Source of the DNA: Rhodothermales bacterium
GTDB lineage: Bacteria; Bacteroidota; Rhodothermia; Rhodothermales; VXPQ01
NCBI GenBank assembly: GCA_965116435.1
Contig: OZ220686.1
Span: 1,082,844-1,146,843 of the forward strand
Reading direction: 5' to 3'
DNA: 64,000 nucleotides
A program made the translations under genes and the position numbers. Each line of letters opens with the position of its first letter. The stretch's first letter is position 1. This document shows positions 23,639 through 54,191 of this stretch, piece after piece. The notes under the pieces were generated by a model. That model was given only the letters and a program-made list of their open reading frames with translations, did no database searches and had not been told where the DNA came from.

Positions 23639-23642
23639 AATC

Positions 23643-25499
23643 ATGACTCAAAATGAACTGGCCAATCTGCTCAACGCTCATGAATGGCGAGATGTTGAGT
23701 TCAAGGAGGCGCAACGGAACGTGCCGCGAAACGCCTATGAAACGGTTTCCGCTTTTGCGAATACCGAAGGCGGTCATCTCGTGTTCGGCGTTCGGAAAAG
23801 TGGACAAGATTTCGAATTTGTCGGCGTTCTTGATATCGACAAGGTTCAGAACGATTTCCTGACAGCACTGCGACAACGCGACAAGCTGAGCATCATTGTG
23901 AATGTTCGTGAAGAACTGCACAAATACGGCGAATCAGACTTGCTCATTTTCTACGTGCCGGAAGCCCATCGCTCGGAAAAACCGGTTTTCCTGAATGGCG
24001 ACATTCGTCGATCATATGTGCGCAGTGGCGGCTGCGATGTGCGCTGCTCGGACAATGAGCGGAGCCGATTCCTTGTGGATGCTGCTGCCGAACGATATGA
24101 CGGCCAGCCTGTTGACCTGAACCCAAGTACGGCGTTCGACAGGGAAAGCATCAAATGGTATCGGGCCTTTTATGAAATAAGGCCGGGAAACCGATCTCAC
24201 GCAACGCTATCCGACACAGATTTCCTAAAGGAACTGGGGTTGCTGGTTGAAGAGCACGGCGAAGTGTCTCCGTCGCGCGCTGCGATTTTTCTGTTTGGGA
24301 CCAATGCGACTTTCCGGCAACTCCTTCCACGGCCGGTAGTGGACTGCCAGAGGTTCTCGCTGCCTCGTGACAGGGCTGATGTCGGTGAGCGATGGATTGA
24401 CCGTCTCGTTCTCGACGAAAACCTCATTCGGTCCTGGCAATCCCTTATCGATTGGTACCAAAGATTCGCGGAGCGGCCATTCAGAATTGACCCAATAACC
24501 TTGCAGCGAGATGACGCACCGCCGGACTACCGCGCCTTTCGTGAATCCATGGTCAACCTGATCATCCATCAGGATTATTCCGATCATTCCAGGAATCCGG
24601 AAATACGTCACTATACCGACCGGACCGTCTTTTGGAATCCTGGCGATGCCTTCGCTGCTGATACAGACCTGCTTGAACCCGGTGAAAAAGAGGTCCGAAA
24701 TCCCAGGATCGTGACCGCTTTCCGGCGCATAGGGCTGAGCGAGAACGCTGGCTGGGGTCTGCGAGATGTCTTCCGCAATTGGCAGCAGTTGGGCCATGTT
24801 CCGCCGACGATTGCTAACAACAAGGGGCGCAAGTGTTTTGAGCTCATTCTCAAAAAAGAAGAACTCATGTCGGAACAGCAGATTCTTTTCCAGGCAAGCC
24901 TCGGTGTGCAGCTCAGCAACGAACAAGCCAGGGTGCTTGCTTTTGCCTGCCGCGAAAGTATAATCTCACTTCCGCAAGTCAAGGCCGTAACGGGTCTTGC
25001 CGGACCGGATGCCGCGGAGCTTGCCAATGCCCTGGTTACAAAATCTCTCCTCAGGACCCTTGAGGACAGTAGAAAATACGCCTTGGCAGAGCACTTGAAG
25101 AAAATGTTCCACCAAACCGACCAAGCCACTGACCAACCTGATGTACGGGCCGAAAACTTGTCCACTGCACAAGTCGAAGGCCAAGAGGAAGACTTGTCCA
25201 CTGGACAAGTTCCTGTCCTTGCAGAACTTTCCGAAACTCATTGGAAAATCATAGCGTTATGCGATGTACCCCGCCGCTTGGCCGAGATTCTGGAAGCCCT
25301 TGGCGTAACCAACAGGGGTTATTTCAAGGAACACCACCTTGACCCACTGATTCAGTCCAAGATTGTGGCGATGACCAACCCGGAGAACCCCCGGGCATCA
25401 AACCAGAGATACGTAATCACCGAAGCGGGCGCTTTGTTGAAAGCACGCCGCATGTCTGACGACACCGACCGAAGCGAGGATCAGAATGGCAATGTTTAG
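23643..25499 (+). CDS. AlbA_2 (Schlafen-like) + HATPase_c_4 + winged-helix protein (RecG-like putative DNA-binding regulator)
   Basis: The N-terminus EWRDVEFKEAQRNVPRNAYETVSAFANTEGGHLVFGV is the AlbA_2 signature. The middle ..YRAFRESMVNLIIHQDYSDHSRNPEIRHYTDRTVFWNPG is HATPase_c_4-like. The C-terminal wHTH-like segments end ..HHLDPLIQSKIVAMTNPENPRASNQRYVITEAG. It starts 5 bp after the brxC stop and overlaps the next gene by 14 bp. Confidence 0.75.
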   Translation: MTQNELANLLNAHEWRDVEFKEAQRNVPRNAYETVSAFANTEGGHLVFGVRKSGQDFEFVGVLDIDKVQNDFLTALRQRDKLSIIVNVREELHKYGESDLLIFYVPEAHRSEKPVFLNGDIRRSYVRSGGCDVRCSDNERSRFLVDAAAERYDGQPVDLNPSTAFDRESIKWYRAFYEIRPGNRSHATLSDTDFLKELGLLVEEHGEVSPSRAAIFLFGTNATFRQLLPRPVVDCQRFSLPRDRADVGERWIDRLVLDENLIRSWQSLIDWYQRFAERPFRIDPITLQRDDAPPDYRAFRESMVNLIIHQDYSDHSRNPEIRHYTDRTVFWNPGDAFAADTDLLEPGEKEVRNPRIVTAFRRIGLSENAGWGLRDVFRNWQQLGHVPPTIANNKGRKCFELILKKEELMSEQQILFQASLGVQLSNEQARVLAFACRESIISLPQVKAVTGLAGPDAAELANALVTKSLLRTLEDSRKYALAEHLKKMFHQTDQATDQPDVRAENLSTAQVEGQEEDLSTGQVPVLAELSETHWKIIALCDVPRRLAEILEALGVTNRGYFKEHHLDPLIQSKIVAMTNPENPRASNQRYVITEAGALLKARRMSDDTDRSEDQNGNV

Positions 25500-28353: not shown

Positions 28354-30986
28354 TGGCTAAGAAACAAATTTTTAAAACCGACTTCACCCGGACTACCGGA
28401 CCTACTGATCCGGAAGCACTTTTCCACAATTTACGGGGAAGGGCTCCAGACATTAAGCACCTTTGGTCGCACCAAGCCGATCTTCTTCGAGACTATCACC
28501 AAAAGTGTCTTGAAGCAAGAGATGTGGCTATTGAGCTCCCTACGGGATCAGGAAAGACACTTGTAGGCTTGCTGATCGCAGAATGGCGACGGCAATCGTT
28601 TAATGAGCGTATCGCCTACCTATGCCCCACTCGTCAGCTTGCTTATCAAGTTGGATCGCAGGCTAATAACTATGGAATTAGAGCCCATGTGTTGGTTGGA
28701 CAGCAAAGCTACTATCCTCCTCAAGAATTCAGCGAATATCAATCAAGTCGTGCTATCGCGGTAACCACATATAGTGGGGTGTTCAATAGATATCCAAGAA
28801 TTGAAGATGCACAGACATTGATTCTGGACGATGCACATGCGGGTGAAAATTTCATGGTCAGCATGTGGTCCGTGGAAATATCTCGTTCATCCATTGATAA
28901 TACCTACTTTTCGATTGTTGAACTTTTGCAAAATGCGCTGAATTCAGGATTCTATTCAAACATTTCAGATCGCACTGATCGGGATTCGACGAAAGCTCGT
29001 ATGACAGAGGTAGAGCTAATCGCTGGAGCTTCAATCCGTAAACACGAGGATGCCATCAGAGACCTTCTTGACGAGAATCTTGAAAAAAAGACATCTCCAT
29101 GGTATGCGTGGAATAATGTTAGAGAAAATATCACCGCTTGTAATTTTTTTATTTCTTGGGATACAATTCTCATCCGGCCATTCATTCCACCAACTCAAAC
29201 CCACGCGCCATTCGAGCAGGCGATTCAAAGAGTTTATATGTCGGCAACATTAGGAGCTGGTGGAGAACTGGAACGTATTACCGGCATCAAGTCTATAAAG
29301 CGTTTGCCCCTTCCCCTAGGATGGGACAAACGAGGTAGCGGACGGAAGTTATTCCTTATTCCAGAACTATCAATGATCAACGAAAAAATGATTGAAGTTG
29401 TAAAAGATGCAGTGCAAAAATTCGACCGAAGTCTTATTCTTATTCCTAGTCGATATGACTCTGAAGGTGCTGATCTAATCAACGTTATTGATCGATTAAA
29501 TATGAAAACATTTCATGCTGCTGACATTAAGGACAGTCTCGACCCATTTCTGAGTAGCACTAACTCCGCCTTGATTCTTTCGCGTTACGACGGATTAGAT
29601 TTACCTGACGAAGCCTGTCGCCTGCTTATTTTTGGTGGACTACCCAGCGGGACCAATCTGCAAGAAAAGTTTCTGTGGTCCAAAATAGCAGCCTCTTCGC
29701 TATTTAGAGATCGCGTGATAACACGTTTTGCCCAAGGCGTTGGCAGGTGTACGCGATCTGATAATGACTATGCTGTTGTATTGATGATCGGCCGTCGGTT
29801 GATTGATTTTCTTTTGAAGAATGAAAATCGTCAAATTTTGAATCCAGAATTGCAGGCAGAGATTAAGTTCGGCATGGAGAATTCCAGAGACAAGTCTGTA
29901 GAAGATTTTCAGGAACTGCGGAGAGTGTTCTTGTCACAGGGCGATGATTGGAAAGACGCAGAATCTGCGATTCTCGCTCTGCGAGATAGCTGTTCTCGCC
30001 ATGATGATCCAATCTCAAGGAAGCTAAATTCTGTGGTTGCCGATGAGGTTTCCTATCTCTATGCAATGTGGAGCAACAATTTTGAAGATGCGCTTGAGCA
30101 CGCGCGAAAAGCCGCGGATGCGCTTGGTGGTGATGAGACAAAGGCATATCGAGCATGGTGGTATTACCTTTCTGCTGAAGCGGCGATGGTTCTTTATGAA
30201 ACCACTGGAAAGGAAGCCTATCAAGATACCGCCCGAAACTTCCTTAAACGTGCCACTCGATGTTGTACCGGTGTTAGTTGGTTTGCACGCTTGGGGCGAT
30301 CATTCAATACCGGTGGTGAGACTCTGGAAATCAATGAAAAAATTGCGATAGCCGTTGAGACAATCAGAGGGCATTTGGCTAATTGGGGTGCTGTGGGTCA
30401 ACTGTTTGAACAGCAACTCACTCAGGTCATGAATAACATCCAATCCATTGAACACAAGGCATTTCATCAAGGACTCAAGGGGCTAGGTGAGATGCTTGGT
30501 TTCTACTCAGAATTGCCAGAAGGGGACGCTGCGCCTGATTGCATTTGGTCCGTTGGAAATCTAATCTATGTAGTACATGAGGCCAAATCGGAACACACGC
30601 CAAAGGACCCTATCGGGGTCAACGATATCCGGCAGGCGCAAAGCCACGGTAACTGGGTCCGGGCCAATCGAACATGTGAAGATAATACCGAAATTATCTG
30701 TCTGATTGAGAGCCCACGTGTAGCAGTAGCTCCAGAAGCCATTGCTCATGCTGAGTCTCTTTACCATGTGACCCCTGCACAGCTGAAAGAATTGTTTGAC
30801 AAGACCGCTGGCATTCTCCGGCGAGTCAGATCGAAGTTGACCGATCTCAGTGATGAGAAAGTCCTTGAGGAGCTATCACGCGAACTCATAACGGGCAGCC
30901 TTACACCTATGCGATTGGTGGAAAGGTTTTCCCAAATGCCTGTTGCCAACATGGAAAGGCGTGGCGGTAGAGGAAACAGCAGTTGA
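28350..30986 (+). CDS. SF2 helicase (DinG/XPD-like C-terminal motifs) fused to a C-terminal PD-(D/E)xK nuclease-like module; occupies the BrxHII position
   Basis: The start ATGATG overlaps the methylase stop (ATGA). Motif I is ELPTGSGKTLVG, motif II is LILDDAH and motif III is MSATLG. Helicase_C_2-like blocks are LILSRYDGLDLPDEACRLLIFGGLP and FAQGVGRCTRSDNDYAVVLMIG. The C-terminal ..APDCIWSVGNLIYVVHEAKSEHT..IRQAQSH fits D...ExK...Q. Confidence 0.75.
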   Translation: MMAKKQIFKTDFTRTTGPTDPEALFHNLRGRAPDIKHLWSHQADLLRDYHQKCLEARDVAIELPTGSGKTLVGLLIAEWRRQSFNERIAYLCPTRQLAYQVGSQANNYGIRAHVLVGQQSYYPPQEFSEYQSSRAIAVTTYSGVFNRYPRIEDAQTLILDDAHAGENFMVSMWSVEISRSSIDNTYFSIVELLQNALNSGFYSNISDRTDRDSTKARMTEVELIAGASIRKHEDAIRDLLDENLEKKTSPWYAWNNVRENITACNFFISWDTILIRPFIPPTQTHAPFEQAIQRVYMSATLGAGGELERITGIKSIKRLPLPLGWDKRGSGRKLFLIPELSMINEKMIEVVKDAVQKFDRSLILIPSRYDSEGADLINVIDRLNMKTFHAADIKDSLDPFLSSTNSALILSRYDGLDLPDEACRLLIFGGLPSGTNLQEKFLWSKIAASSLFRDRVITRFAQGVGRCTRSDNDYAVVLMIGRRLIDFLLKNENRQILNPELQAEIKFGMENSRDKSVEDFQELRRVFLSQGDDWKDAESAILALRDSCSRHDDPISRKLNSVVADEVSYLYAMWSNNFEDALEHARKAADALGGDETKAYRAWWYYLSAEAAMVLYETTGKEAYQDTARNFLKRATRCCTGVSWFARLGRSFNTGGETLEINEKIAIAVETIRGHLANWGAVGQLFEQQLTQVMNNIQSIEHKAFHQGLKGLGEMLGFYSELPEGDAAPDCIWSVGNLIYVVHEAKSEHTPKDPIGVNDIRQAQSHGNWVRANRTCEDNTEIICLIESPRVAVAPEAIAHAESLYHVTPAQLKELFDKTAGILRRVRSKLTDLSDEKVLEELSRELITGSLTPMRLVERFSQMPVANMERRGGRGNSS

Positions 30987-31013
30987 GAACTGAAGAAAAA
31001 ACCCTGGAACTGA

Positions 31014-31262
31014 GTGAACTGCTTCATAATTAAGATTGATGCAAAAAACCGATATTTTAGTCCGGACCATGGACAAATCTGCCAGACCATCAAGACCCAG
31101 ATGCTCTGGGGCGAGACGACCTGTCGGGTATGGCTATCCAACCGCGATTCGATGGTCCGCGTCCCTGCATCCAGGCTGCCCCCCCTGAAGGATTCAAGAA
31201 CAAGAACCGCTACCGGAAATGACGCCTCTCCTTATCTTACGGGTTACAGGAGGTACCCATGA
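31014..31262 (+). CDS. Doubtful 82-codon ORF in the helicase-pglZ spacer; its stop overlaps the pglZ ATG
   Basis: ORF-track entry. It ends ..YRRYP* with TGA overlapping the ATG of pglZ (ATGA). The segment GQICQTIKTQMLWGETTCRVWLSNRDSMVRVPASRLPPL could be a small beta-rich domain or a gene remnant. There is no independent support. Confidence 0.2.
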   Translation: MNCFIIKIDAKNRYFSPDHGQICQTIKTQMLWGETTCRVWLSNRDSMVRVPASRLPPLKDSRTRTATGNDASPYLTGYRRYP

Positions 31263-33265
31263 GTAACTGGCGCGACCAGATTCTCAGGGAGTTCACTCCC
31301 CATGTCGCCCGGCTGACCCTGGTTGCCGATCCAGACGGGCTGCTCCTGGAAGAAGGGGTTATTGGGAGCATACGCGAGCGTGGTTTTGAATTGATTCCGT
31401 TCGAGGATCATGTCGCCTTTCGCTACGCCTACGAATCCAGATTTCGCTCCCGCTGGGATCAGGGTGAGCAGACGGATTTGGTAGTCGTGCTGCGCTCTGC
31501 GGAGAGCGACCTCGGCTATCTGCCATACGATCTGCTCCAGGCAGGTCGCAAATTTTCATTCAACCTCGGGGATATCTTCCCCAGCCTGAGCTATCCAATC
31601 GTGACCGCCTTGGATCGGGGGGATCTGGATGCGCTCTACGAAGCCCAGAAGCAGCAGCACCCCGGAGTGCTGGGCGACAATGCTACAAAGGAATTCGTTC
31701 TGTGCCATGTCTTTGAGATCGATCCAGAACTCATCCGCAAGCCGTCCGATCTACTGCGGGTGCTGCTGCGCCGCCACTATCGGGAACAGCACATCCCCGC
31801 TTTGCTTGACGAGCGCTTTATTCAGATCCTGCGCCAACAGAGCGATTTTGAAGGGTGGCCCCTCGAAACGATTATCCCGGATCGAGAAGCCTTTTTCGCC
31901 TTTCTCCAGGAACGCTGGCCCATCTTCTTAAATCGGGCGGCAACCCAGGTTACCACCAGCACTCGCGAGGATGAGAAGCCCTGCGACCTTGAGTATCCCG
32001 GTCCTTCGAACTTGCCCTTCGACCATGACGACATCCGTGTCTATATCGACAACCTCTTTGTTGAAGGACTGCTTGAAGCGGTTGCCCATGATCAAGCCAA
32101 GTCGCTCTCCAGGACTTGGCTCGCCATAGGCATCCGAACGGACGAGCATGCGGACCGGGCGAGGCGCGTGGAGGGACTCCTCGATACCTTGGCGTCCGAT
32201 ATTCCGAATGAGGACACGCGGCACGAGGACTGGTTTCACTTTGCCAAAACCTGGGCGGAGCTTGTAGCGTTGGTGCTGGGTCCGAATGCGGTACTGCCGG
32301 AACCGGCGCGGCAGAAGATGGGAGCGCTTCAAGCTCAGATCGATGCCGCACTCGTGCCGTGGCTAACAAAACGCTACGCAGGATTGGTCAGCCTGCCTCC
32401 GGTTCCTCCGGTCATGCTCCATCATATTCCCCGTTTCCTCTCCCGCCATATTCACAATGGGAACCAACACAAGGTTGCGTTTATCCTGATGGACGGCCTT
32501 GGGCTGGATCAGTGGATCGTCATCCGAAAAGAAATCGCCAAACAGCGAGCCAATTACCGCTTTCGTGAGAACGCCGTGTTTGCCTGGATACCGACCATCA
32601 CGTCTGTTTCGCGCCAGGCTGCTTTTGCAGGAAAACCACCGATCTATTTCCCGAACAGCATCCATACCACCGACAAAGAACCGGCGTTGTGGACACAATT
32701 TTGGGCCGACCAAGGGCTTACACAGCAGGAAGTCGCATATGCCAAGGGACTGGGGAACGGCCCCCTGGAAAGTGTGGAGGAGATTGTTGCCCGGCCCAAG
32801 ACGCGGGTGGTCGGTCTGGTTGTCGACAAAGTGGACAAGATCATGCACGGCATGGAACTTGGCGCAAAGGGCATGCACAACCAGGTTCGCCAGTGGGCCG
32901 AGGGGCCATTCATGACGCAACTGTTTGACTTGCTTCTGGAAAACGGATTTCGTGTTTACCTGTCGTCGGATCACGGCAATATTGAAGCATCAGGTTGCGG
33001 CCGACCTGCAGAAGGAGCCGTGGCAAACCTGCGCGGAGAACGTGCTCGGATTTATTCCGATTCCTTGCTGCGAGGTCGGGTTAAGGAACGCTTCCCGGAC
33101 GCTTTGGAATGGCCTCCTATCGGGCTGCCGGAGGATTATTGGCCCCTGCTTGCTCCGCCTCGCGCCGCGTTTGTGCCCAAGACCAGAAACCTTGTCGGGC
33201 ATGGCGGCGTCGCTCTCGAAGAACTCATCGTCCCGCTTGTTCGGATTGAAAGAAGAGACACATGA
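31259..33265 (+). CDS. pglZ: PglZ alkaline-phosphatase-superfamily protein (BREX)
   Basis: 668 aa. The PglZ core reads VAFILMDGLGLDQW, FAWIPTITSVSRQAAFAG, VDKVDKIMHG and VYLSSDHGNIEA. Confidence 0.85.
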   Translation: MSNWRDQILREFTPHVARLTLVADPDGLLLEEGVIGSIRERGFELIPFEDHVAFRYAYESRFRSRWDQGEQTDLVVVLRSAESDLGYLPYDLLQAGRKFSFNLGDIFPSLSYPIVTALDRGDLDALYEAQKQQHPGVLGDNATKEFVLCHVFEIDPELIRKPSDLLRVLLRRHYREQHIPALLDERFIQILRQQSDFEGWPLETIIPDREAFFAFLQERWPIFLNRAATQVTTSTREDEKPCDLEYPGPSNLPFDHDDIRVYIDNLFVEGLLEAVAHDQAKSLSRTWLAIGIRTDEHADRARRVEGLLDTLASDIPNEDTRHEDWFHFAKTWAELVALVLGPNAVLPEPARQKMGALQAQIDAALVPWLTKRYAGLVSLPPVPPVMLHHIPRFLSRHIHNGNQHKVAFILMDGLGLDQWIVIRKEIAKQRANYRFRENAVFAWIPTITSVSRQAAFAGKPPIYFPNSIHTTDKEPALWTQFWADQGLTQQEVAYAKGLGNGPLESVEEIVARPKTRVVGLVVDKVDKIMHGMELGAKGMHNQVRQWAEGPFMTQLFDLLLENGFRVYLSSDHGNIEASGCGRPAEGAVANLRGERARIYSDSLLRGRVKERFPDALEWPPIGLPEDYWPLLAPPRAAFVPKTRNLVGHGGVALEELIVPLVRIERRDT

Positions 33266-34038
33266 GCACAGGGAGAGACCGACGGCACAGCCAGATTGGC
33301 CTGGATCGGCTTGTTCGGCTTGACTGGTTAGAGCAAACTGCCTATCTGGTCCTGGCCGGGAACGAAGCGCATAAAATGAAAACTATCCTGCAGGAGGAAC
33401 TTTCAGATGCGTTCCGCTCCAGCAACGCCGATGTGCGAGGTTCGCTCGACAAAACAATCACCATTTTGTTGAGGATTTGGGCGGGCGTTTCAGGCAATCT
33501 CCATCCACTTCGGGAAGATGGGCTCAATCTACTCTCAAGCCTGCCTCGGAAAGACCATATTGCAGTTCATTGGGGTATGACCATGGCGGTTTACCCTTTT
33601 TGGGGTTCGGTCGCCGCCCATACAGGACGGCTACTCAGGCTTCAAGGCACGGCGGCAAGCGATCAAATACAGCGCAGAGCGCGGGAGCAATACGGAGAGC
33701 GCGAAACGGTCTCTCGTCGAGTTCGCTATGTGCTGCGCAGCTTTATTGACTGGAACGTACTGGAAGAGACGCGAGTCAAGGGGACTTACAGCCAAGGAAA
33801 CCACTATCTGGTTGAAGAACCCAAGCTCATTGCCTGGATGATGGAAGCATCCCTCCACGCCCGGGTGAACGGGTCGGCCGCCATAAAAGACCTGCTCGAC
33901 AGCCCGAGCATCTTTCCCTTCCGATTAACCCATATCTCAGCCGAACATGTGGCGTCGCTCTCGCCTCGTCTGAATATCCTTCGGCACGGACTGGATGACA
34001 ACCTTGTGATGCTACATGAAAAAGGAAGGAGAACATGA
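33262..34038 (+). CDS. Uncharacterised 258-aa protein, translationally coupled to pglZ; candidate BrxA-like component
   Basis: ATGA overlap with the pglZ stop. It is helical-looking, with no TM segment or catalytic motif that I can see. The BrxA assignment rests on its position as last gene of a type-3-like operon and on size only. I cannot confirm sequence similarity from memory. Confidence 0.4.
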   Translation: MSTGRDRRHSQIGLDRLVRLDWLEQTAYLVLAGNEAHKMKTILQEELSDAFRSSNADVRGSLDKTITILLRIWAGVSGNLHPLREDGLNLLSSLPRKDHIAVHWGMTMAVYPFWGSVAAHTGRLLRLQGTAASDQIQRRAREQYGERETVSRRVRYVLRSFIDWNVLEETRVKGTYSQGNHYLVEEPKLIAWMMEASLHARVNGSAAIKDLLDSPSIFPFRLTHISAEHVASLSPRLNILRHGLDDNLVMLHEKGRRT

Positions 34039-46668: not shown

Positions 46669-46863
46669 AACCCGCCCGGCAGTGGAAACATCAGAATGCT
46701 TTCCGGGAAATTAGGAGGGAGCGAGGCGGTATGCAACTATAGGATGTCCCGCCGTTGATTTTACCCCCGGTTCACAATATCTTCCAGGGTCTATGATTTT
46801 TTGCAAGCCAGCGAATGAATTTTATGTGGATGCGGTCTAATTCTGAAAGAAACCCCGTTCCCC

Positions 46864-48036
46864 ATGTCTCCCTCGTGCTTGCTTCGATTCGGCTGTGCGC
46901 TGACCCTGCTGATGCTTGGGTGCGGCATGGGGTGGGCAGATGCGTTCGGAGCCGACGGGTCAGCCATTTCCCGTGAGGCCCCTGTCGCACAGGGCGCGCC
47001 GAACGGCCCCTGGCTTGCCCCGCCGGACGAAACCGGCAAGAAACTCTACCGAAACGCCTGCGCAACATGCCATGGCGCAGATGGCCGGGGCGCTCCCGAA
47101 GCCCTGCTGGGGTTTGGCGTTCCGCTCCCCGATTTCACCGACTGCAATTTCGCCACCCGCGAACCCGACGCGGACTGGATTGCGGTAGCGCATCAGGGAG
47201 GTCCCGTACGCGGTTTTGCGCGGGAAATGCCGGCCTTCGGCGATGCGCTGACGCAAAACGAACTCCAGAAAATCCTGGGTTACATACGCACACTGTGCCC
47301 GAACGACGACTGGCCCCGAGGCGAATTGAATACGCCCCGCGCCCTCGTGACGGAAAAAGCCTTCCCGGAAGACGAGGTCGTACTCACCACGACAGCAGAT
47401 ATCGAAACCGCACATACCGTCGTGGTCCATGAACTGGTCTACGAGAAACGATTCGGCGCACGCAATCAATTCGAAGTCGTTATGCCGTTCGGGTTCGGGA
47501 AACATACGAACGGGGGCGTACTCGGGGACGTAGCGCTCGGTCTGAAACGCGTCGTTTTGCACAAGATCGACCGGGGCAACATACTCAGCCTCGGCGGCGA
47601 GGTCATCCTCCCTACCGGGTATGAAAACGCAGATTTCGGAAAGGGCGCAACGCGCCTGGAGCCTTTCGTTTCGTTCGGGCAAATGCTTCCCGGAGACGCT
47701 TTTTTGCAATTTCAGGGGGGCCTCGAAATTTCCCTGAACCGGGACGCCATTGAGGACGAAGCGTTTTTGCGCAGCGTGGCAGGCAAAAGTTTTACGCAGG
47801 GAGACTGGGGGCGAACATGGTCTCCCATGCTGGAAGTCCTCGGGGCGCGCACGCTGGGCCTGGAGGGCAGTTTACATTGGGATATAGCCCCCCAGGTGCA
47901 AATCGCCCTGAATCAGCGACAGCATGTGATGCTCAATGCCGGGCTTCGCATGCCTGTACGCCGCGACGAACGCATGCAATTTATGGTCTATTTGTTGTGG
48001 GAATGGTTCGACGGCGGATTTTTCGAGGGCTGGTAA
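46864..48036 (+). CDS. Fusion protein: N-terminal monohaem class I cytochrome c + C-terminal predicted outer-membrane beta-barrel (MetA/phenol-degradation-like)
   Basis: The signal/lipobox-like N-terminus is LTLLMLGCG. The single haem site is CATCH with a distal ..REMPAF. The C-terminal ~260 aa show alternating-hydrophobic strands and end ..LLWEWFDGGFFEGW with an aromatic terminus. Confidence 0.6.
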   Translation: MSPSCLLRFGCALTLLMLGCGMGWADAFGADGSAISREAPVAQGAPNGPWLAPPDETGKKLYRNACATCHGADGRGAPEALLGFGVPLPDFTDCNFATREPDADWIAVAHQGGPVRGFAREMPAFGDALTQNELQKILGYIRTLCPNDDWPRGELNTPRALVTEKAFPEDEVVLTTTADIETAHTVVVHELVYEKRFGARNQFEVVMPFGFGKHTNGGVLGDVALGLKRVVLHKIDRGNILSLGGEVILPTGYENADFGKGATRLEPFVSFGQMLPGDAFLQFQGGLEISLNRDAIEDEAFLRSVAGKSFTQGDWGRTWSPMLEVLGARTLGLEGSLHWDIAPQVQIALNQRQHVMLNAGLRMPVRRDERMQFMVYLLWEWFDGGFFEGW

Positions 48037-48056
48037 CCGGTATCTCATCGGAAAAC

Positions 48057-49721
48057 ATGTCCATGCACAGAAAACTTGTTTGGGTTATCCTTGCCGCGGC
48101 GGCAGGATTGGCGTTCGCGCACCCGCTCTTGTTCCCTGCGTCCCCCCGGACGACAGGCCCGGCTTTCTCCCAAGCCGACGATCCGCACTTGTTTGCGACC
48201 GGCGCCGCCTGCATCAGTTGTCACAGCAACCTGATCGCCCCTTCCGGCGAGGACATCTCGATGGGCACGGACTGGCGGGCGTCCATGATGGCCAATTCGG
48301 CCCGCGACCCGTACTGGCAAGCCGCCGTGCGGCGAGAAACCATGGATCACCCGGAGTCGGCGGACCACATCGAAGACGAATGCGCCGCCTGTCATATGCC
48401 CATGTCTCGCTTCGAGGCACAGGCGGCGAACCGGCTCGGCCAGGTTTTTGCGCACCTGCCGGTCGGGAAGGAAACGCATCGCACCGACCGCCTGGCCGCC
48501 GACGGCGTTTCCTGCACCGTATGTCACCAGATCGCCGCCGAAAACCTGGGCGCCCCGGAAAGTTTCACTGCCGGCTTCGCGATCGATACGGAAACGCCCA
48601 TGGAGCAACGCATCCTTTTTGGGCCCTACGATGTGGACGCCGGACGCAGCACGGTGATGCACTCCGCATCGGGATTCCGGCAAGTGGAATCGCGCCATAT
48701 CCAAACGTCTGAAGTCTGCGCAACCTGTCATACCCTGTTTACCGAAGCCCTGGGCCCTTCGGGAGAGGTCGTGGGCACGCTGCCCGAGCAGGTCCCGTAC
48801 CTGGAATGGCTGCATAGCGCGTACCGCGAAGAAGAGAGCTGCCAGTCCTGCCACATGCCCGTCGTGCAGGATACCGCCGCCATCTCGTCCGTACTGGGCG
48901 CAAAGCGAACCGGCGTTTCCCGGCATGTATTCCAGGGAGGCAATTTCTTTATGCTGCGGATGCTGAACCGGTACCGCGACGACCTGGGCGTGGAAGCGCT
49001 CCCCGAAGAACTGGACGCCGCGGCCCGGCACACCGAACGCCATCTGCAAACGAGCGCAGCGCGCATCGCGATCGCAAGCACGGAATGGGAAGGGCATACG
49101 CTGCGCGTCGAGGTGCGCGTCGAAAACCTGGCGGGACACAAACTGCCGACCGGGTATCCTTCGCGCAGAAGCTGGATTCGTTTTGCGGTGCTCGACCGAA
49201 ACGGAACGCCCGTTTTCGAATCCGGCGCCCTGCAACCCACCGGCGAAATCACAGGAAACGACAACGACCGCGATCCGACCCGCTACGAACCCCATTACCG
49301 GCGCATCTCGCAGCACGATCAGGTGCAGATTTACGAATCCGTACTGGTTGACACGGAAGATCAGGTCACGACGGGGCTTTTGCAGGGGGTGCGGTACGTC
49401 AAGGACAATCGACTGCTCCCGCGCGGCTTCGACAAAACGACCGCCTCCGAAGACATTGCGGTGCATGGACATGCCCGAACCGACGACGATTTCGCCGAAG
49501 GAGGCGACGCCGTCCGGTACCTCGTCGAGGTTGGCGAACGCCCGGGGCCTTTTACCGTGCAGGCAGCGCTCTGGTATCAACCTGTCGGCTACCGATGGGC
49601 CCGGAATCTTGGAGACTACGCGGCCCCTGAAACCGATCGGTTCGTGGCATTCTACGACGCCATGTCGGACATATCCGGCCTGCCCCTCGCGACAGCAGAA
49701 CGCACGGTATCTGCCCCGTGA
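48057..49721 (+). CDS. Periplasmic pentahaem c-type cytochrome
   Basis: Start at MSMHRKLVWVILAAAAGLAFA (48057). The listed ORF start 47817 overlaps the previous gene. Five CxxCH motifs are present: CISCH, CAACH, CTVCH, CATCH, CQSCH. The conserved HKLPTGYPSRRSW block is also present. Confidence 0.8.
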   Translation: MSMHRKLVWVILAAAAGLAFAHPLLFPASPRTTGPAFSQADDPHLFATGAACISCHSNLIAPSGEDISMGTDWRASMMANSARDPYWQAAVRRETMDHPESADHIEDECAACHMPMSRFEAQAANRLGQVFAHLPVGKETHRTDRLAADGVSCTVCHQIAAENLGAPESFTAGFAIDTETPMEQRILFGPYDVDAGRSTVMHSASGFRQVESRHIQTSEVCATCHTLFTEALGPSGEVVGTLPEQVPYLEWLHSAYREEESCQSCHMPVVQDTAAISSVLGAKRTGVSRHVFQGGNFFMLRMLNRYRDDLGVEALPEELDAAARHTERHLQTSAARIAIASTEWEGHTLRVEVRVENLAGHKLPTGYPSRRSWIRFAVLDRNGTPVFESGALQPTGEITGNDNDRDPTRYEPHYRRISQHDQVQIYESVLVDTEDQVTTGLLQGVRYVKDNRLLPRGFDKTTASEDIAVHGHARTDDDFAEGGDAVRYLVEVGERPGPFTVQAALWYQPVGYRWARNLGDYAAPETDRFVAFYDAMSDISGLPLATAERTVSAP

Positions 49722-51186: not shown

Positions 51187-52488
51187 ATGCCTCGTTACGG
51201 AAGATTCATGCGAAAGAGCAGGAGACAGACGCGTGTGCGCGCTATTCCGGCGCTGGCCCTTTGTGGTCTCCTCCTCGCTCCTGCAGGCGCGTTCGGACAG
51301 CAACTCAGCCAGGAAACAGCGCAGCGGGTTTCGCTTGCCGAAGCGCTGGAAGCATTCGCCAGGAATAGCCTCGCATTACGGATCGCCCGGTCCGAAACCG
51401 CCGAACTGACCGGGGCGGCCCGGCAATCGCGGACCTATTCCAATCCGGCGTTCTCGTTCGGACGGGACGACCTCAGCCACCAGAACGAAAAAATATGGGA
51501 AGAGACGTTCCATATTAGCCAACAAGTGGAATGGCCAGGACGAACCGCTGCCCGGGGTCGAATCGCCACGCACGCCATCGGCGCCGGCGCCGCTCGTTTC
51601 CGCGCCGACTCCACCGAACTGGCTTTCGAGGTTCGCGAGGCCTACGCGCAAACCTGGCTCGCCGAAGAGACGGAATCGATCGCGCGACAAACGGCCGCCA
51701 TCATACAGGAGGTAGCCGAAGATGCGGAAAATCGCCTCGAGTCGGGCGACATTTCGGCCTACGACGCCCGGCGGCTTCGCATTGAGCGAGCGACGGCCAG
51801 CATGGACGTGGAGGAAGCAGAACTTCGCGCCCGCGACGCCCGCAGGATGCTTGCCGCCCTGATCGCCCCCGGGACGGGAACGGATGAAATCGGACCCTCC
51901 GAAGCCCTCGACGGCATCCCTCCCGTGATAGCCCGGGAGGCTGCGATGCACGCGCTTTCGCAACGACCGGACGTCGAAGCCGCCATGCGGGAACTGCATG
52001 CAGCGAGCGCAGGCGTTCAGGTCGCCCAGACCTATTGGGTACCCGAGCCGACCCTTGGCGTGGGGTACCGACACCACGACGATGGATTCGGCGGCGCCAG
52101 CATTGCGCTGGACCTTCCGTTGCCGCTTTTCGACCGGGGCGCGGGCGCCCGGCAAGAGGCGACCGCGCAACATTCCGCCGCCGCGTATCGCCTGGACCTG
52201 ACCAGTCAGCTGGCCGAATACGACCTGCTGACTGCTTCGGATCGCTATGGCTCCGCGCGAGCGCGCCTTGAATCGATGGGACCGAACCTCCGGGCCGATA
52301 GCGAGGCCCTGCTTGCATCCGCAACCACGGCCTACGCCGAAAACGAAATGACGCTGCTGGACATCCTCGATGCAGCCAATACGTTTAAGAGCGCCCAACT
52401 GAGCGTGCTCTCCCTGACGTCCGAGGCCTGGATATCGTACTACAACCTGCTTCGCGCCATGGGAAGCGCTCCAGAGAACGAACGATGA
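51187..52488 (+). CDS. TolC-family outer-membrane factor of a heavy-metal RND system (CzcC-like)
   Basis: A signal peptide is followed by two OEP-type repeats. It is the first gene of a three-gene operon with overlapping stop/start codons. Confidence 0.8.
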   Translation: MPRYGRFMRKSRRQTRVRAIPALALCGLLLAPAGAFGQQLSQETAQRVSLAEALEAFARNSLALRIARSETAELTGAARQSRTYSNPAFSFGRDDLSHQNEKIWEETFHISQQVEWPGRTAARGRIATHAIGAGAARFRADSTELAFEVREAYAQTWLAEETESIARQTAAIIQEVAEDAENRLESGDISAYDARRLRIERATASMDVEEAELRARDARRMLAALIAPGTGTDEIGPSEALDGIPPVIAREAAMHALSQRPDVEAAMRELHAASAGVQVAQTYWVPEPTLGVGYRHHDDGFGGASIALDLPLPLFDRGAGARQEATAQHSAAAYRLDLTSQLAEYDLLTASDRYGSARARLESMGPNLRADSEALLASATTAYAENEMTLLDILDAANTFKSAQLSVLSLTSEAWISYYNLLRAMGSAPENER

Positions 52489-54191
52489 ACAGGAAATTTG
52501 CCATGTTGTTGTCGGGGGGCGTGGCGCTCCTCGGGCTGTGTGGGCTTTGGGGTTGCGGAAACGCGCCCGAAGAGGACGCGGCCCTCGCCGAAACGCACGA
52601 TAGCCACATGGGCGGAGGATCGTTCACGCAGACGGTGGACGGTATGGAGATATTCGTCGAATATCCGCACCAGATCCAAGGCGTGGAGAGCGAAGAACCC
52701 TGGACGATGTACCTGACCCGGCTGGATACCTGGCGACCGGTTGCGGGCGCAAGCGTAACGCTGGTGGCGTATGAATCGCCTGAATCACGCCGGGAAATCA
52801 AGGCCCGGGCCGAGGCTCCGGGCATGTACGTGGCGGCGCCCATGTTGCCGTCGGCAGGACATTGGCGCGCCGGGCTTGCGCTGTCGGTCGACGGACGCGA
52901 TCACTGGATCGAGGCGGGCGAGTTCGAGGTCTTCGCAAGCGAAGAGGACGTCCACGCCCATGCCGGGCACGATCATGCAGAGCACGAAACCGACGCCCAT
53001 GCCGGACATGATCATGCAGAGGACGAGGACGACGCACATGCCGGACACGATCATGCGGAGGATGAAGCCGACGCTGATGCCGGACACGACCATGCAGAGG
53101 ACGAGGCCGACGCCCATGCCGGGCATGATCATGCGGAGGACACTATAGCGGCGGAGATCACCGAATTGATCACGCTGCCCAAACGGGAGCAATGGACGCT
53201 GCCCTTCGCCGTCGCCGAGGCGGAAGCGCGCGGAATACCGGCCTCGATCCCGGCAGCGGGAGAGCTCGTGGCGCCTCCCAGCGGTCTCGTCCACGTCTCG
53301 TCGCCCGTAGCCGGGCTCGTTAAAGTGCATAACCCCGCGGTCGGACCGGGCGACTATGTCCGCGCCGGACAGATCCTGGCGCAGATCGCTCCCGTCAGCC
53401 TGGACAATTCATACGCCCGTACGCGGGCGGACGTCACAGGGGCGCAACTTGAGGCGGACAGAGCGGAACGCCTCTTCGCCGCCGGCGCCATCCCGGAACG
53501 CCGACTGCTGGATGCGCAACGAAACCTTGAGGTGGCCGTAGCCGCTTTCGAAGCGATCGGCGGGTCGCTGGACACGATCGGCGAGGATAATCCCGACGCC
53601 AACGTGTATTATCTTCGCAGCCCCATTAACGGCGTGGTCGCGGTGCGCGACGTGGCGCTGGGCGCCCAGGTCGAGATCGGAACACATGCATTCACCATCG
53701 TGAACGCATCCACGCTCTGGTTCGTCGCACGGGTTCCGGCCCGCTACGCCGCCGAGACAAACAGGATTCGGGGCGCATGGTTCACCGTCGAAGGCGGAGA
53801 GGACACCTACGCTTCAGACCGGTTGCTTTCCACAGGCAGCATGATTGATCCGGGGAGCCGCACGCTCCCGGTTCGATTCGCCATTCGGAACCCCGGCGAT
53901 GCGCTCAAGGTGGGCATGCTGGCCGAGGGCCGTATCCTGCTGGGCGATCCGGTGCAGGGCGTCGCGGTTCCGAATTCGGCGATCCAGGAAGAGAACAATC
54001 TGCCGGTGATCTACGCCATGCTCGCCGGGGACACCTTCGAGCGCCGCGTCGTCGAAACAGGTCCGTCGGACGGGTCCTGGACGATCGTGTCCGGCGTGGA
54101 CGCGGGCGAGCGGGTCGTGACCGAAGGCGCCTACCAGGTGAGCCTTGCCGCACTGGGAACCGTCGAGCCGGCGCATGACCATGCCCACTAA
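52485..54191 (+). CDS. RND periplasmic adaptor (CzcB/CusB-like) with a His/Asp/Glu-rich repeat insert
   Basis: The HlyD/MFP-like C-terminal two thirds include VSSPVAGLV and RSPINGVVAVRDV. The N-terminal part carries the metal-binding-looking repeat. Confidence 0.85.
   Translation: MNRKFAMLLSGGVALLGLCGLWGCGNAPEEDAALAETHDSHMGGGSFTQTVDGMEIFVEYPHQIQGVESEEPWTMYLTRLDTWRPVAGASVTLVAYESPESRREIKARAEAPGMYVAAPMLPSAGHWRAGLALSVDGRDHWIEAGEFEVFASEEDVHAHAGHDHAEHETDAHAGHDHAEDEDDAHAGHDHAEDEADADAGHDHAEDEADAHAGHDHAEDTIAAEITELITLPKREQWTLPFAVAEAEARGIPASIPAAGELVAPPSGLVHVSSPVAGLVKVHNPAVGPGDYVRAGQILAQIAPVSLDNSYARTRADVTGAQLEADRAERLFAAGAIPERRLLDAQRNLEVAVAAFEAIGGSLDTIGEDNPDANVYYLRSPINGVVAVRDVALGAQVEIGTHAFTIVNASTLWFVARVPARYAAETNRIRGAWFTVEGGEDTYASDRLLSTGSMIDPGSRTLPVRFAIRNPGDALKVGMLAEGRILLGDPVQGVAVPNSAIQEENNLPVIYAMLAGDTFERRVVETGPSDGSWTIVSGVDAGERVVTEGAYQVSLAALGTVEPAHDHAH
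52956..53141 (+). repeat. 39-bp in-frame tandem repeat x ~4.8 encoding AHAGHDHAE(D/H)E(x)D
   Basis: The protein segment reads AHAGHDHAEHETDAHAGHDHAEDEDDAHAGHDHAEDEADADAGHDHAEDEADAHAGHDHAED. Confidence 0.9.

Follow-up and report, generated by a model that had tools for sequence, protein, structure and literature searches.

A cytochrome c fused to an outer-membrane barrel and its pentahaem partner in a Rhodothermales bacterium: a putative periplasmic redox module

Fusions of a monohaem cytochrome with a porin are known as Cyc2 from the iron oxidisers Acidithiobacillus, Mariprofundus and Gallionellaceae, and in MtrCAB, PioAB and MtoAB a 26-stranded barrel sheathes a membrane-spanning decahaem wire (both PMC8406198). 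Much smaller barrels are found in FapF and in the COG4313 channels. The N-terminal domain of FapF has been found experimentally to be periplasmic, the plug enters the barrel from the periplasm, the N-terminal domain and the linker govern plug conformation and pore opening, and a truncated FapF barrel is stably closed by the plug (PMC5557850). The lumen of Pput2725 is blocked by the 14 N-terminal residues, which come from the periplasmic side, and COG4313 channels are believed to transport hydrophobic compounds, perhaps via a lateral exit into the membrane (PMC4493636). There are also precedents for pentahaem cytochromes encoded with a porin, namely extKL, which is accompanied by the porin gene extI (PMC11976967), and PtdA, the neighbour of which is the porin PtdB (bioRxiv 10.1101/2023.11.21.568154), and the one characterised member of this pentahaem family, MccSep, is a periplasmic enzyme the substrate of which must cross the outer membrane (bioRxiv 10.1101/2025.11.18.688581).

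The gene pair described here lies in a window of 64,000 nucleotides, which is the whole stretch of DNA that was analysed (Table 1). The promoter of the pair presumably lies in the intergenic region upstream of gene 1, in which neither an Rfam match nor a plus-strand sigma-70-like site above shuffle expectation was found. From the N- to the C-terminus, the gene 1 product consists of a signal peptide, a class I haem c domain, a 25-residue linker and a 12-stranded barrel. The signal peptide is a predicted helix at residues 3-21 (AlphaFold2), is variable among homologues (conservation 0.21), and by sequence reading has no canonical lipobox. An earlier note on this DNA had claimed a signal peptide and one class I haem c domain (CATCH, EMPAF), and this is borne out by Pfam, which recognises residues 56-144 as the sole cytochrome c domain (PF13442, E 9e-11; PF00034, E 1.4e-8), by the single CxxCH of the product, and by Met122. 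The latter is the probable sixth haem ligand, because within the Pfam alignment range it coincides in position with the Met ligand known from class I cytochromes c. C66, C69, H70 and M122 are invariant in an alignment of 50 sequences, and so are C94 and C145, a pair that flanks a large part of the haem domain; a disulfide, if formed between them, would fit a folded periplasmic haem domain. The AlphaFold2 model of this domain is weak at residues 95-124.

Table 1. Positions of the features of the gene pair within the window
Feature	Positions	Strand	Details and basis
Presumed promoter region of the pair	46669..46863	.	195-bp intergenic region between a thiO-like gene (minus strand, divergent) and gene 1; ORF map
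Gene 1, cytochrome c and outer-membrane barrel fusion	46864..48036	+	390 aa, stop codon included; ORF map
Gene 1 signal peptide	46864..46944	+	about residues 1-27, MSPSCLLRFGCALTLLMLGCGMGWADA; sequence reading, cleavage site approximate
Gene 1 class I cytochrome c domain	47029..47298	+	residues 56-145; Pfam; includes extra cysteines C94, C145
Gene 1 haem-binding motif C66-A-T-C-H70	47059..47073	+	translation; invariant
Gene 1 Met122 in EMPAF	47227..47229	+	probable sixth haem ligand, assigned by position; invariant
Gene 1 linker	47299..47373	+	residues 146-170, PNDDWPRGELNTPRALVTEKAFPED; proline- and charge-rich, near-invariant; mean conservation 0.87
Gene 1 12-stranded beta-barrel	47374..48003	+	residues 171-380; AlphaFold2, Foldseek, alternating faces, PF13557 in homologues
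Gene 1 L-P-T-G motif	47608..47619	+	residues 249-252, base of loop beta5-beta6; conservation
Gene 1 C-terminal tail WFDGGFFEGW	48004..48033	+	residues 381-390, invariant; conservation 0.95; low model confidence
Spacer between gene 1 and gene 2	48037..48056	+	20 nt; sequence
Gene 2, pentahaem cytochrome	48057..49721	+	PHC (pentahaem + Ig-like domain) fold family; 554 aa, stop codon included; ORF map
Gene 2 Sec-type signal peptide	48057..48119	+	MSMHRKLVWVILAAAAGLAFA; sequence reading; predicted helix 3-25
Gene 2 five-CxxCH span	48210..48854	+	translation
Gene 2 CISCH	48210-48224	+	translation
Gene 2 CAACH	48381-48395	+	translation
Gene 2 CTVCH	48513-48527	+	translation
Gene 2 CATCH	48717-48731	+	translation
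Gene 2 CQSCH	48840-48854	+	translation
Gene 2 C-terminal beta-rich (Ig-like, extended) domain	49056..49718	+	residues about 334-554; strand-rich, pLDDT about 90-97
Gene 2 H361-K-L-P-T-G	49137-49154	+	H361, K362, L363, P364 invariant

For the C-terminal part of gene 1, a barrel of the MetA/phenol-degradation type ending in ...FFEGW had been proposed, and barrel prediction had been set beforehand as a refutation test. This part is indeed predicted as a barrel and not as a soluble domain: AlphaFold2, run on the 50-sequence alignment, places 12 strands over residues 171-380 with a pLDDT mostly of 85-97, and the top Foldseek matches in the PDB are 12-stranded outer-membrane barrels (FapF, E 1e-9; the COG4313 channel 4rl8, E 2e-6), with NanC, KdgM and PcoB (7pge, E 1e-3) as further barrels and also invasin (E 1.5e-5) and BrkA (E 2e-4). 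In the strands, a hydrophobic, less conserved face alternates with a polar, more conserved one, and the mean column identity of the barrel is 53% across phyla. PF13557 (Phenol_MetA_deg) stays below threshold on gene 1 itself (E 0.03, 14.8 bits versus a cut-off of 22) and is matched at E <= 0.01 by 31 of 50 homologues (best 6.4e-7); the similarity of the gene 1 profile to the FapF sequence is marginal (E 0.9). The L-P-T-G motif, with P250 and G252 invariant and T251 nearly so, is located like the conserved PTG motifs of FapF (PMC5557850) and Pro119-Thr120-Gly121 of Pput2725 (PMC4493636). The linker is more conserved than the haem domain and the barrel and second only to the C-terminal tail; the lumen-occluding N-terminal segment in COG4313 (PMC4493636) and the plug in FapF (PMC5557850) have the same position, which makes the linker a candidate plug or gate at the periplasmic mouth, and the tail is a candidate BAM signal or a contact at the same mouth. 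Conservation is thus higher in linker, tail and periplasmic turns (0.75) than in the external loops (0.61), and it points to a functional periplasmic face.

Gene 2, the ATG of which is found 21 bp past the last base of gene 1, encodes a periplasmic protein with five CxxCH motifs, just as had been stated before, and its signal peptide lacks a lipobox cysteine by sequence reading. The motifs are at residues 52, 109, 153, 221 and 262, and all ten cysteines and five histidines are invariant among 48 homologues. Gene 2 has no cysteine outside the haem motifs, nor do the 48 homologues have another conserved one, and the six conserved histidines outside the motifs would suffice for five bis-His haems. 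Since the catalytic Cys and Sec of MccSep are lacking and the histidines for five bis-His haems are present, gene 2 may only carry electrons and not be an enzyme. Foldseek gave one strong match, 5ze8 (E 4.8e-14, TM 0.61 on the target). The C-terminal domain of gene 2 aligns with the Ig-like domain of this protein (NLQPHAMPTGAPFRN), and phmmer detects 5ze8 at E 0.003. The NCBIfam ExtKL model is matched at E 5e-9, with 35 bits versus an equivalog cut-off of 250, and 44 of the 48 homologues match the ExtKL/MccSep model weakly; the Pfam MtrC/MtrF pentahaem domain reaches 27.1 bits, which is below its cut-off of 30.

Co-occurrence of both genes in other genomes had been named as a check on the earlier note, and gene 2 is found directly downstream of gene 1, on the same strand and with short gaps, at 68 of the 72 related loci with room for it. 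These loci span Rhodothermales, Balneolaceae, Gemmatimonadota, Acidobacteriota and others, the pairing persists at 37% identity, and the whole gene 1 architecture is kept in all full-length homologues down to 33% identity. In four Gemmatimonadota loci and in the most divergent subgroup, gene 1 has no gene 2 nearby and thus can stand alone. No third conserved neighbour gene was found in 80 related loci. The pair had also been placed in a metal-homeostasis setting; the metal-efflux genes (CDF, OEP/HlyD/RND) are present in the window, but such a neighbourhood is conserved in none of the 80 related loci, and it is therefore coincidental and uninformative on function. Judged from the sequences, the architecture is not a chance pattern, because both families are large and strongly conserved and the pairing recurs across phyla. 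Gene 1 and gene 2 are a real, widespread two-gene unit, and their family, on which a literature search found no publication, is distinct from Cyc2.

By homology to FapF and COG4313, the haem domain of gene 1 would be periplasmic, and both proteins together probably constitute a redox module on the periplasmic side of the outer membrane and not a trans-membrane wire. The best explanation, with a probability somewhat short of an even chance, is a two-gene operon for an outer-membrane-anchored periplasmic redox module that comprises a channel, a tethered cytochrome c and a pentahaem partner. The 12-stranded barrel of the FapF/COG4313 superfamily would have short, variable external loops, the linker would be a plug or gate in the barrel or at its periplasmic mouth, the His/Met class I cytochrome c domain would hang in the periplasm, and gene 2 would be a soluble periplasmic protein composed of a helical cap that holds the five haems and an Ig-like stem. 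The gated barrel would let a small substrate or product across the outer membrane, gene 2 would oxidise or reduce it at the periplasmic face, and the tethered monohaem domain would be a dedicated one-electron link between gene 2 and soluble carriers of the respiratory chain, without any haem wire through the membrane. This presumes that the two proteins are in physical contact, that the barrel is a transporter and that gene 2 is a catalyst. It counts against this explanation that an outer-membrane tether is an odd site for a relay to inner-membrane complexes, that gene 2 is devoid of the catalytic Cys/Sec of MccSep, and that gene 1 sometimes occurs without gene 2, and it counts against a substrate channel into the periplasm that COG4313 cargo may exit laterally into the membrane (PMC4493636).

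The barrel could also be a mere membrane anchor, permanently plugged and without transport, holding a cytochrome c that docks gene 2, and the pair would then be a periplasmic electron relay or store without catalytic chemistry of its own. The balanced conserved acidic and basic lumen lining and the equally conserved linker would suit a salt-bridged closed barrel, a plug does keep the truncated FapF barrel closed (PMC5557850), gene 2 is without a catalytic Cys or Sec and could ligate five bis-His haems with its conserved histidines, and branched five-haem arrangements have been proposed as transient electron stores (bioRxiv 10.1101/2025.11.18.688581). This is nevertheless unlikely: a lipid anchor would be far cheaper, the PTG loop and the gate-like linker are kept as in the transporting homologues, which suggests that passage matters, and the strict cross-phylum conservation of both proteins resembles an enzyme system more than a generic relay. 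The high conservation of the linker between haem domain and strand 1, together with the control of plug and pore by the N-terminal domain and linker of FapF (PMC5557850), would also agree with a redox-gated channel in which the haem domain is a sensor, gene 2 sets its state, and the linker plug opens or closes the barrel. A haem-c-gated outer-membrane barrel is without precedent, however, five haems in the partner seem more than the switching of a sensor would need, and nothing in the sequence separates the sensor from the substrate-channel model. Such gating is improbable.

The earlier note had found this locus reminiscent of porin-cytochrome conduits in a minimal form. Such a conduit is physically unlikely: a 12-stranded barrel cannot enclose a cytochrome domain of about 90 residues, the nearest homologous barrels (FapF, COG4313) keep their N-terminal part in the periplasm or have it enter from there, and the distance from the periplasmic mouth to the cell surface is too large for a lone haem to transfer electrons directly. 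In such a conduit, or in a Cyc2-like metal oxidase, Fe(II), Mn(II) or Cu(I) would enter the barrel and be oxidised by the fused haem, or electrons would cross via this haem, and gene 2 would pass electrons onward in the periplasm. In overall logic, with a signal peptide and one haem c joined to an outer-membrane barrel, gene 1 is like Cyc2 (PMC8406198), the lumen is lined by polar positions of high conservation, with His/Met/Glu/Gln near the periplasmic mouth (M322, E324, Q344, Q346, H354, M356), the copper transporter PcoB is among the Foldseek neighbours, and metal-efflux genes adjoin in the window. Yet the AxPxFAR[QK][TY] and PxL motifs that surround the CxxCH in Cyc2 are found in none of 50 gene 1 sequences, and Cyc2 has 16 strands (PMC8406198) and, with a poorly conserved porin part, whole-protein identities of 17-30% between clusters, as compared to the barrel of gene 1 with its 12 strands and 53% mean column identity. 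With a haem domain that is periplasmic by homology, oxidation of the metal would take place within the periplasm; the metal-efflux genes nearby are not a conserved neighbourhood, and recognised iron oxidisers (Gallionellaceae, Zetaproteobacteria) are absent from the 80 loci listed. A metal oxidase or conduit is thus distinctly unlikely. The remark that the fusion was not recognised as a described system needs correction, as fused cytochrome-porins are known from Cyc2, although gene 1 does not qualify as Cyc2 by its features, and the earlier interpretation as a whole is partly supported. Very improbable is an autotransporter-like display (type Va layout), in which the linker would run through the lumen and present the cytochrome c on the cell surface to external electron donors or acceptors. 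Gene 1 has the domain order of classical autotransporters (signal peptide, passenger, linker, 12-stranded barrel), barrels of the autotransporter type (BrkA) and of the intimin/invasin type (invasin) are among its Foldseek matches, COG4313 (PMC4493636) and FapF (PMC5557850) barrels have been noted as autotransporter-like, and a 25-residue extended linker could cross the lumen. But FapF and COG4313 outscore the autotransporters, the N-terminus of FapF is experimentally periplasmic, the linker is proline-rich and not the usual helix, the periplasmic side is more conserved than the outside, and gene 2 carries an ordinary Sec signal peptide. In type Va secretion, folded haem proteins or long-range disulfides pass a 12-stranded barrel poorly, and both a periplasm-folded c-type cytochrome with covalent haem and a C94/C145 disulfide would be poor cargo.

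Compared to the known systems, gene 1 is like Cyc2 a single polypeptide with a signal peptide, an N-terminal single CxxCH and a C-terminal outer-membrane barrel, and it shares with Cyc2 the concept of a small, cheap alternative to large porin-cytochrome complexes. The available part of the Cyc2 description gives an OprO/OprP-like, poorly conserved porin with a very short cytochrome part and mentions no obligatory pentahaem partner, whereas gene 1 has a highly conserved FapF/COG4313-type barrel, a full His/Met domain and gene 2, and the taxa differ. The best structural matches are the 12-stranded plugged barrels of FapF and COG4313 (Phenol_MetA_deg, e.g. Pput2725, SphA, TcpY), which share the PTG at the base of loop beta5-beta6 and a conserved plug-position segment before strand 1, and COG4313 is also linked by the weak but recurrent PF13557 matches. 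FapF has an extra N-terminal domain ahead of the plug as well; this is a coiled coil in FapF, haem c in gene 1, and absent in COG4313, and the gene partners there are amyloid or aromatic-catabolism genes, not a multihaem cytochrome. In MtrCAB, PioAB and MtoAB, an outer-membrane barrel gene adjoins a multihaem cytochrome gene, too, but the fold of the multihaem protein differs from gene 2, and 12 strands cannot sheathe a cytochrome. The Pco system combines the small outer-membrane barrel PcoB with the periplasmic copper oxidase PcoA. Its similarity to a small barrel with a periplasmic redox protein is an analogy only, as there is no sequence relationship and the redox partner is a multicopper oxidase and not a haem protein. 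Gene 2 shares with the PHC family a helical N-terminal part that carries five CxxCH and, after it, a beta-rich part of Ig-like type; the family comprises the low-potential c552 of Thermochromatium tepidum (5ze8), Geobacter ExtKL/MccSep, PtdA and the sPHC/lPHC of cable bacteria. It is about 120 residues longer than c552, with which it has the invariant His (HKLPTG) in common, and has neither a haem-ligating Cys nor a Sec or Cys in the Ig-domain loop. As with extKL near extI and PtdA next to PtdB, it adjoins an outer-membrane barrel gene, but its barrel partner has a haem domain of its own, for which no statement on ExtI or PtdB was found. Because this pentahaem fold family (T. tepidum c552/ExtKL-MccSep/PtdA) recurrently adjoins outer-membrane barrels, the pairing of gene 1 and gene 2 is not unprecedented but a variant of a recurring theme.

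Gene 1, which encodes a cytochrome c fused to a predicted outer-membrane barrel, and gene 2, which encodes a pentahaem cytochrome, are flanked on either side by genes on the opposite strand and therefore form a two-gene unit (see the table). The N-terminus of gene 2, as read from the translation, is a Sec-type leader, MSMHRKLVWVILAAAAGLAFA. No Rfam element was found upstream of gene 1, and a scan for promoters and terminators gave a result no better than that obtained with shuffles.

Features of the two-gene unit and segments of the gene 1 product with their mean conservation; the periplasmic and external sides assume that strand 1 goes outward from the periplasm
Feature	Position	Strand or orientation	Description	Mean conservation
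Gene 1	46864..48036	+	ORF, 390 aa	
Gene 2	ATG 48057, end 49721	+	long ORF, 554 aa; start chosen after 20-nt spacer	
ThiO-like and ThiG genes	upstream of gene 1	divergent	from the window ORF map	
CDF transporter gene	downstream of gene 2	convergent	followed by OEP, HlyD/CusB-like and RND genes	
C-terminal tail, gene 1	residues 381-390		WFDGGFFEGW	0.95
Linker, gene 1	residues 146-170		PNDDWPRGELNTPRALVTEKAFPED; second most conserved segment	0.87
Cytochrome c domain, gene 1				0.76
Periplasmic turns, gene 1				0.75
Barrel, gene 1				0.71
External loops, gene 1			short	0.61

When 185,579 species genomes were scanned with a pattern, at least 579 of them were found to encode a relative of gene 1, and the nearest relatives among the matches listed belong to Rhodothermales MAGs (66-67% identity). 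The best 80 of these at least 579 come from Rhodothermales, Balneolaceae, Cyclonatronaceae, Gemmatimonadota/Longimicrobiales, Latescibacterota, Bradymonadales, Desulfuromonadaceae and one gammaproteobacterium, and they also include many Acidobacteriota (Vicinamibacterales, Bryobacterales, Aminicenantes). The pairing of the two genes, which the earlier note had described for this genome, recurs elsewhere: of the 72 loci that extend far enough downstream, 68 have a homologue of gene 2 (50-78% identity) shortly behind gene 1 and on the same strand, and the partner is still present with gene 1 relatives of 37% identity. The other four loci, all on Gemmatimonadota MAG contigs (L042, L045, L061, L068), have gene 1 without the pentahaem partner within the stretch of DNA at hand, and also the most divergent gene 1 group (about 361-366 aa) lacks it in two contigs examined. 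In some lineages, the fusion is apparently able to work, or at any rate to survive, on its own. Next to these lone homologues, i.e. in the same four loci and on the contigs of the protein entries P0341 and P0351, the next gene downstream is encoded on the opposite strand.

An exhaustive search with just the barrel as query gave 390 cluster representatives at E <= 1e-10, and the haem domain is present in all those of full length. Apparent stand-alone barrel relatives of 270-300 aa were rejected as truncated gene calls, because all of them begin with MPAFG at an internal Met of the haem domain; entries of this kind (P0255, P0279, P0283, P0293 and P0332, 270-285 aa) could mislead surveys of domain architecture. 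Nine of the loci (L024, L033, L037, L038, L049, L050, L057, L059, L079) carry the labels 'uncultured Eubacteriales' or 'Bifidobacteriaceae'. These are monoderm taxa, and the labels on such pair-carrying contigs are probably binning or taxonomy errors, which is also indicated by the adjoining genes that resemble those of Acidobacteriota loci.

When the ORFs of the 80 related loci and the window were clustered all-against-all, only genes 1 and 2 were conserved, and no third conserved gene was found. The metal-homeostasis setting, which had been considered as a hint at the function, therefore has to be given up as a clue, and RND pumps were present in just 6 of the 81 loci. Other minor neighbours (FtsX/ABC permeases, PadR, kinases, a PQQ dehydrogenase) revealed no theme. 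The PQQ-dependent dehydrogenase of 640 aa, with a weak Pfam cytochrome c match, is encoded just upstream of the pair on two contigs (L082 3548-5470, L083 488-2410) that carry one and the same gene 1 homologue (P0291), from a divergent branch with 37% identity to gene 1, and at no other locus. In the window itself, the HlyD/CusB-like gene at 52485-54191 (+) contains 4.8 tandem copies of a 39-bp unit (52954-53141) that encodes, close to the N-terminal end of the RND operon's membrane-fusion protein, the His/Asp/Glu-rich repeat HAGHDHAEDExDA, presumably a metal-binding arm. Further away, a low-GC block at 19910-34038 (+), with GC down to 0.46-0.53 around 24-32 kb, encodes a DUF6079 protein (1242 aa), a Schlafen/AlbA_2-HATPase protein, an N6/N4 DNA methylase (955 aa), a DEAD/ResIII helicase (920 aa) and a PglZ-domain protein; it looks like a BREX/Pgl-type phage-defence island and was probably acquired horizontally.

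The cytochrome c domain of gene 1 (residues 56-144) is recognized by Pfam above threshold as a single domain (PF13442, E 9e-11; PF00034, E 1.4e-8), and C66, C69, H70 and M122 do not vary among 50 aligned homologues, which is what is expected of a class I cytochrome c with a predicted His/Met ligation of the haem. In the same 50 homologues, a long conserved loop (DFTDCNFATREPDADW..HQGGPxRxF) lies between the haem motif and the Met, and also C94 and C145 are invariant. These two cysteines (47143-47145 and 47296-47298) are outside the haem motif, flank the long conserved insertion and are retained even at 33% identity; a disulfide is the simplest reading, but they could also act at the haem or serve in redox sensing. 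In the AlphaFold2 model of gene 1 (mean pLDDT 76, pTM 0.72), residues 95-124 of the haem domain are poorly modelled.

The same model, which was built on the alignment of 50 homologues and, like that of gene 2, without haem, predicts twelve strands in residues 171-380 with a pLDDT of mostly 85-97. The top Foldseek PDB matches are 12-stranded outer-membrane barrels, namely FapF (E 1e-9) and the COG4313 channel Pput2725 (4rl8, E 2e-6), followed by NanC, the translocators of invasin/intimin and BrkA, KdgM and PcoB. The strands alternate between a less conserved hydrophobic face and a more conserved polar face (up to 0.96). PF13557 (Phenol_MetA_deg) matches residues 171-315 below its gathering threshold (E 0.03, 14.8 bits vs a cut-off of 22), but it matches 31 of the 50 homologues at E <= 0.01 (best 6.4e-7), and the barrel therefore is a divergent relative at the superfamily level. 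L249-P-T-G252 directly follows strand 5 (239-249), with P250 and G252 invariant, and like the PTG motifs of FapF and Pro119-Thr120-Gly121 of Pput2725 it is at the base of the loop between strands 5 and 6 (L3). A barrel profile matched FapF alone among the PDB sequences, with an E of 0.9 that is too weak by itself and counts only together with the fold and the motif. The C-terminal part of gene 1 is thus predicted to belong, as a divergent representative, to the FapF/COG4313 barrel superfamily, and the earlier assignment to the "MetA type" was thus right.

In Pput2725, it is from the periplasmic side that the 14 residues ahead of strand 1 fold into the lumen (PMC4493636), and FapF has a plug that comes in from the periplasm and is controlled by the N-terminal domain and its linker; the periplasmic location of that domain has been demonstrated by tag accessibility and a beta-lactamase fusion (PMC5557850). 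The linker of gene 1 occupies the position of this lumen-occluding segment before strand 1. From the homology to both proteins we infer that the haem domain resides in the periplasm and that the invariant linker is a candidate plug or gate.

As to the partner, all five CxxCH motifs of gene 2 (at residues 52, 109, 153, 221 and 262) are invariant in 48 homologues, and six further histidines outside these motifs are conserved (H98, H214, H253, H290, H361, H413). No conserved cysteine outside the five CxxCH was found in gene 2 and its 47 aligned homologues. The AlphaFold2 model (pLDDT 78, pTM 0.80) is helical in its N-terminal part and rich in strands in its C-terminal part (pLDDT 90-97), and its single strong Foldseek PDB match is 5ze8, the low-potential pentahaem c552 of Thermochromatium tepidum (E 4.8e-14, TM 0.61 on target). 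With phmmer, the Ig-like domains of the two align, ENLAGHKLPTGYPSRR against NLQPHAMPTGAPFRN, and it is just in this Ig-domain stretch that the alignment of gene 2 is reliable. Cytochrome c552, ExtKL, Gsu2801 and cable-bacterial proteins have been grouped as one 'PHC' family (PMC11976967). Gene 2 is, by its model, a protein of this PHC fold, with a five-haem helical part and an Ig-like beta-sandwich. The NCBIfam model for ExtKL/MccSep, NF040886, weakly matches 44 of the 48 homologues (best E 4.7e-12), and on gene 2 itself it scores 35.1 bits vs a cut-off of 250, which is far from the equivalog level. MccSep/ExtKL is a periplasmic polysulfide reductase in which haem 2 is His/Cys-ligated and the Ig-like domain supplies a catalytic selenocysteine (bioRxiv 10.1101/2025.11.18.688581). 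Gene 2 has neither the Cys as distal ligand of haem 2 nor the Sec/Cys of the Ig loop, and it therefore has the PHC fold without being an MccSep. Its Ig-domain loop bears an invariant His (HKLPTG), like c552, at a place that presumably corresponds to U325 of MccSep. The lack of a non-haem cysteine argues against a sulfur chemistry in the style of MccSep or TsdA, but some other chemistry could take place at an open haem site. In the literature on GSU2801, functional data were not found.

It can tentatively be proposed that the gated barrel of gene 1 lets a small molecule through, that the PHC protein processes this molecule, or stores electrons, at the periplasmic face, and that the tethered His/Met cytochrome c serves as a one-electron link to soluble carriers; localisation, contact between the two products, transport and catalysis are all inferred here. 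It is unlikely that the barrel just holds the cytochrome as the anchor of a relay, and it is very unlikely that the pair is a channel gated by redox state. The most improbable alternative is a display similar to that of type Va autotransporters, in which the passenger would reach the cell surface through the 12-strand barrel and a helical linker would remain in the lumen. The domain order of gene 1 fits this, and autotransporter barrels are among the weaker Foldseek matches, but the linker is proline-rich, the haem is covalently bound, the Cys pair is invariant, and the closer homologue FapF has its N-terminus in the periplasm (PMC5557850). Returning to the gated barrel with its pentahaem partner, it is possible, yet rather doubtful, that the pair constitutes an unrecognised class of outer-membrane-associated haem enzyme systems, in which a channel with its tethered cytochrome c would feed a small molecule to a pentahaem catalyst docked at the periplasmic mouth, or in which the haem domain would gate the channel by redox state.

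That the fusion is a metal oxidase like Cyc2 is quite unlikely. According to Keffer et al. (PMC8406198), a Cyc2 combines a signal peptide and a short cytochrome part containing a single CxxCH with a porin of 16 strands that resembles OprO/OprP, and the motifs AxPxFAR[QK][TY] and PxL lie 5 residues upstream and 4 residues downstream of the CxxCH, respectively. Gene 1 shares the generic features, i.e. the signal peptide, the one CxxCH, the fused barrel and the length (390 aa vs at least 365 aa for Cyc2), but these alone do not define the Cyc2 family. By regular-expression search, the upstream motif was found in 0 of 50 members of the gene 1 family, gene 1 itself reading ...ETGKKLYRNA-CATCH, and the PxL motif was equally absent from all 50 (GADGRGAPEA in gene 1). 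OprO/OprP did not occur among the 50 best-listed Foldseek PDB matches of gene 1, the best of which are 12-strand barrels. Compared with Cyc2, the barrel has 12 strands instead of 16, a complete class I domain takes the place of the short cytochrome part, and a mean column identity of 53% across phyla compares with whole-protein identities of 17-30% between Cyc2 clusters. As the motifs are absent and strand number and haem domain differ, gene 1 has a plan similar to that of Cyc2 but, judged by the motifs and the description published for that family, it is not a member, and it should be kept out of the Cyc2 counts of iron-gene surveys that look for 'haem plus barrel'. The minimal electron conduit considered in the earlier note is not favoured either, as a lumen of 12 strands is too small to enclose a haem domain of ~90 residues and a single haem at the periplasmic mouth would be too far from the surface for a direct transfer to the outside, biological electron tunnelling having an upper limit of roughly 14 Å. 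A conduit of the MtrAB type needs a barrel of ~26 strands that sheathes a membrane-spanning multihaem cytochrome, like the 26-stranded MtrB, MtoB and PioB, which Keffer et al. contrast with Cyc2 (PMC8406198), and the gene 1 barrel is far smaller.

The only papers retrieved by full-text literature searches on fused cytochrome-porins, COG4313/MetA barrels and PHC proteins dealt with Cyc2, FapF/COG4313 and PHC proteins, and none concerned the gene 1 fusion family; the source databases list gene 1 as 'c-type cytochrome' and gene 2 as 'hypothetical protein'. In diderm bacteria, electrons and redox-active substrates enter and leave by way of outer-membrane cytochromes, and to our knowledge only few architectures of these have been described, namely the MtrCAB type, Cyc2, and the Ext and Omc clusters of Geobacter. 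The pair adds to these a compact and strongly conserved architecture, present in at least 579 species-level genomes from a number of phyla with high abundance in soils, sediments and saline habitats, and gene 1 is rated as a second, unrelated cytochrome-barrel fusion family besides Cyc2, coupled to a PHC protein. If the pair turns over a substrate, this would be an unrecognised and possibly widespread redox activity, and if it is an enzyme or a gated channel, hundreds of species from soil, sediment and saline environments, among them Rhodothermales, Balneolaceae, Gemmatimonadota and Vicinamibacterales, would possess a new respiratory or detoxifying activity. As a tractable two-gene system with cultured hosts (Fodinibius, Gracilimonas, Rhodohalobacter, Longibacter), it is well suited to studies of how PHC proteins cooperate with outer-membrane barrels, a question that equally concerns ExtKL/MccSep and PtdAB. 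PHC proteins adjoin outer-membrane barrels also elsewhere, extKL being associated with extI (PMC11976967) and PtdA with the porin PtdB (bioRxiv 10.1101/2023.11.21.568154), and in the case of MccSep the authors regarded the substrate's route over the outer membrane as unknown (bioRxiv 10.1101/2025.11.18.688581). By analogy to these systems, gene 1 and gene 2 may be read as a compact form of a recurring theme in which a PHC protein is combined with a barrel.
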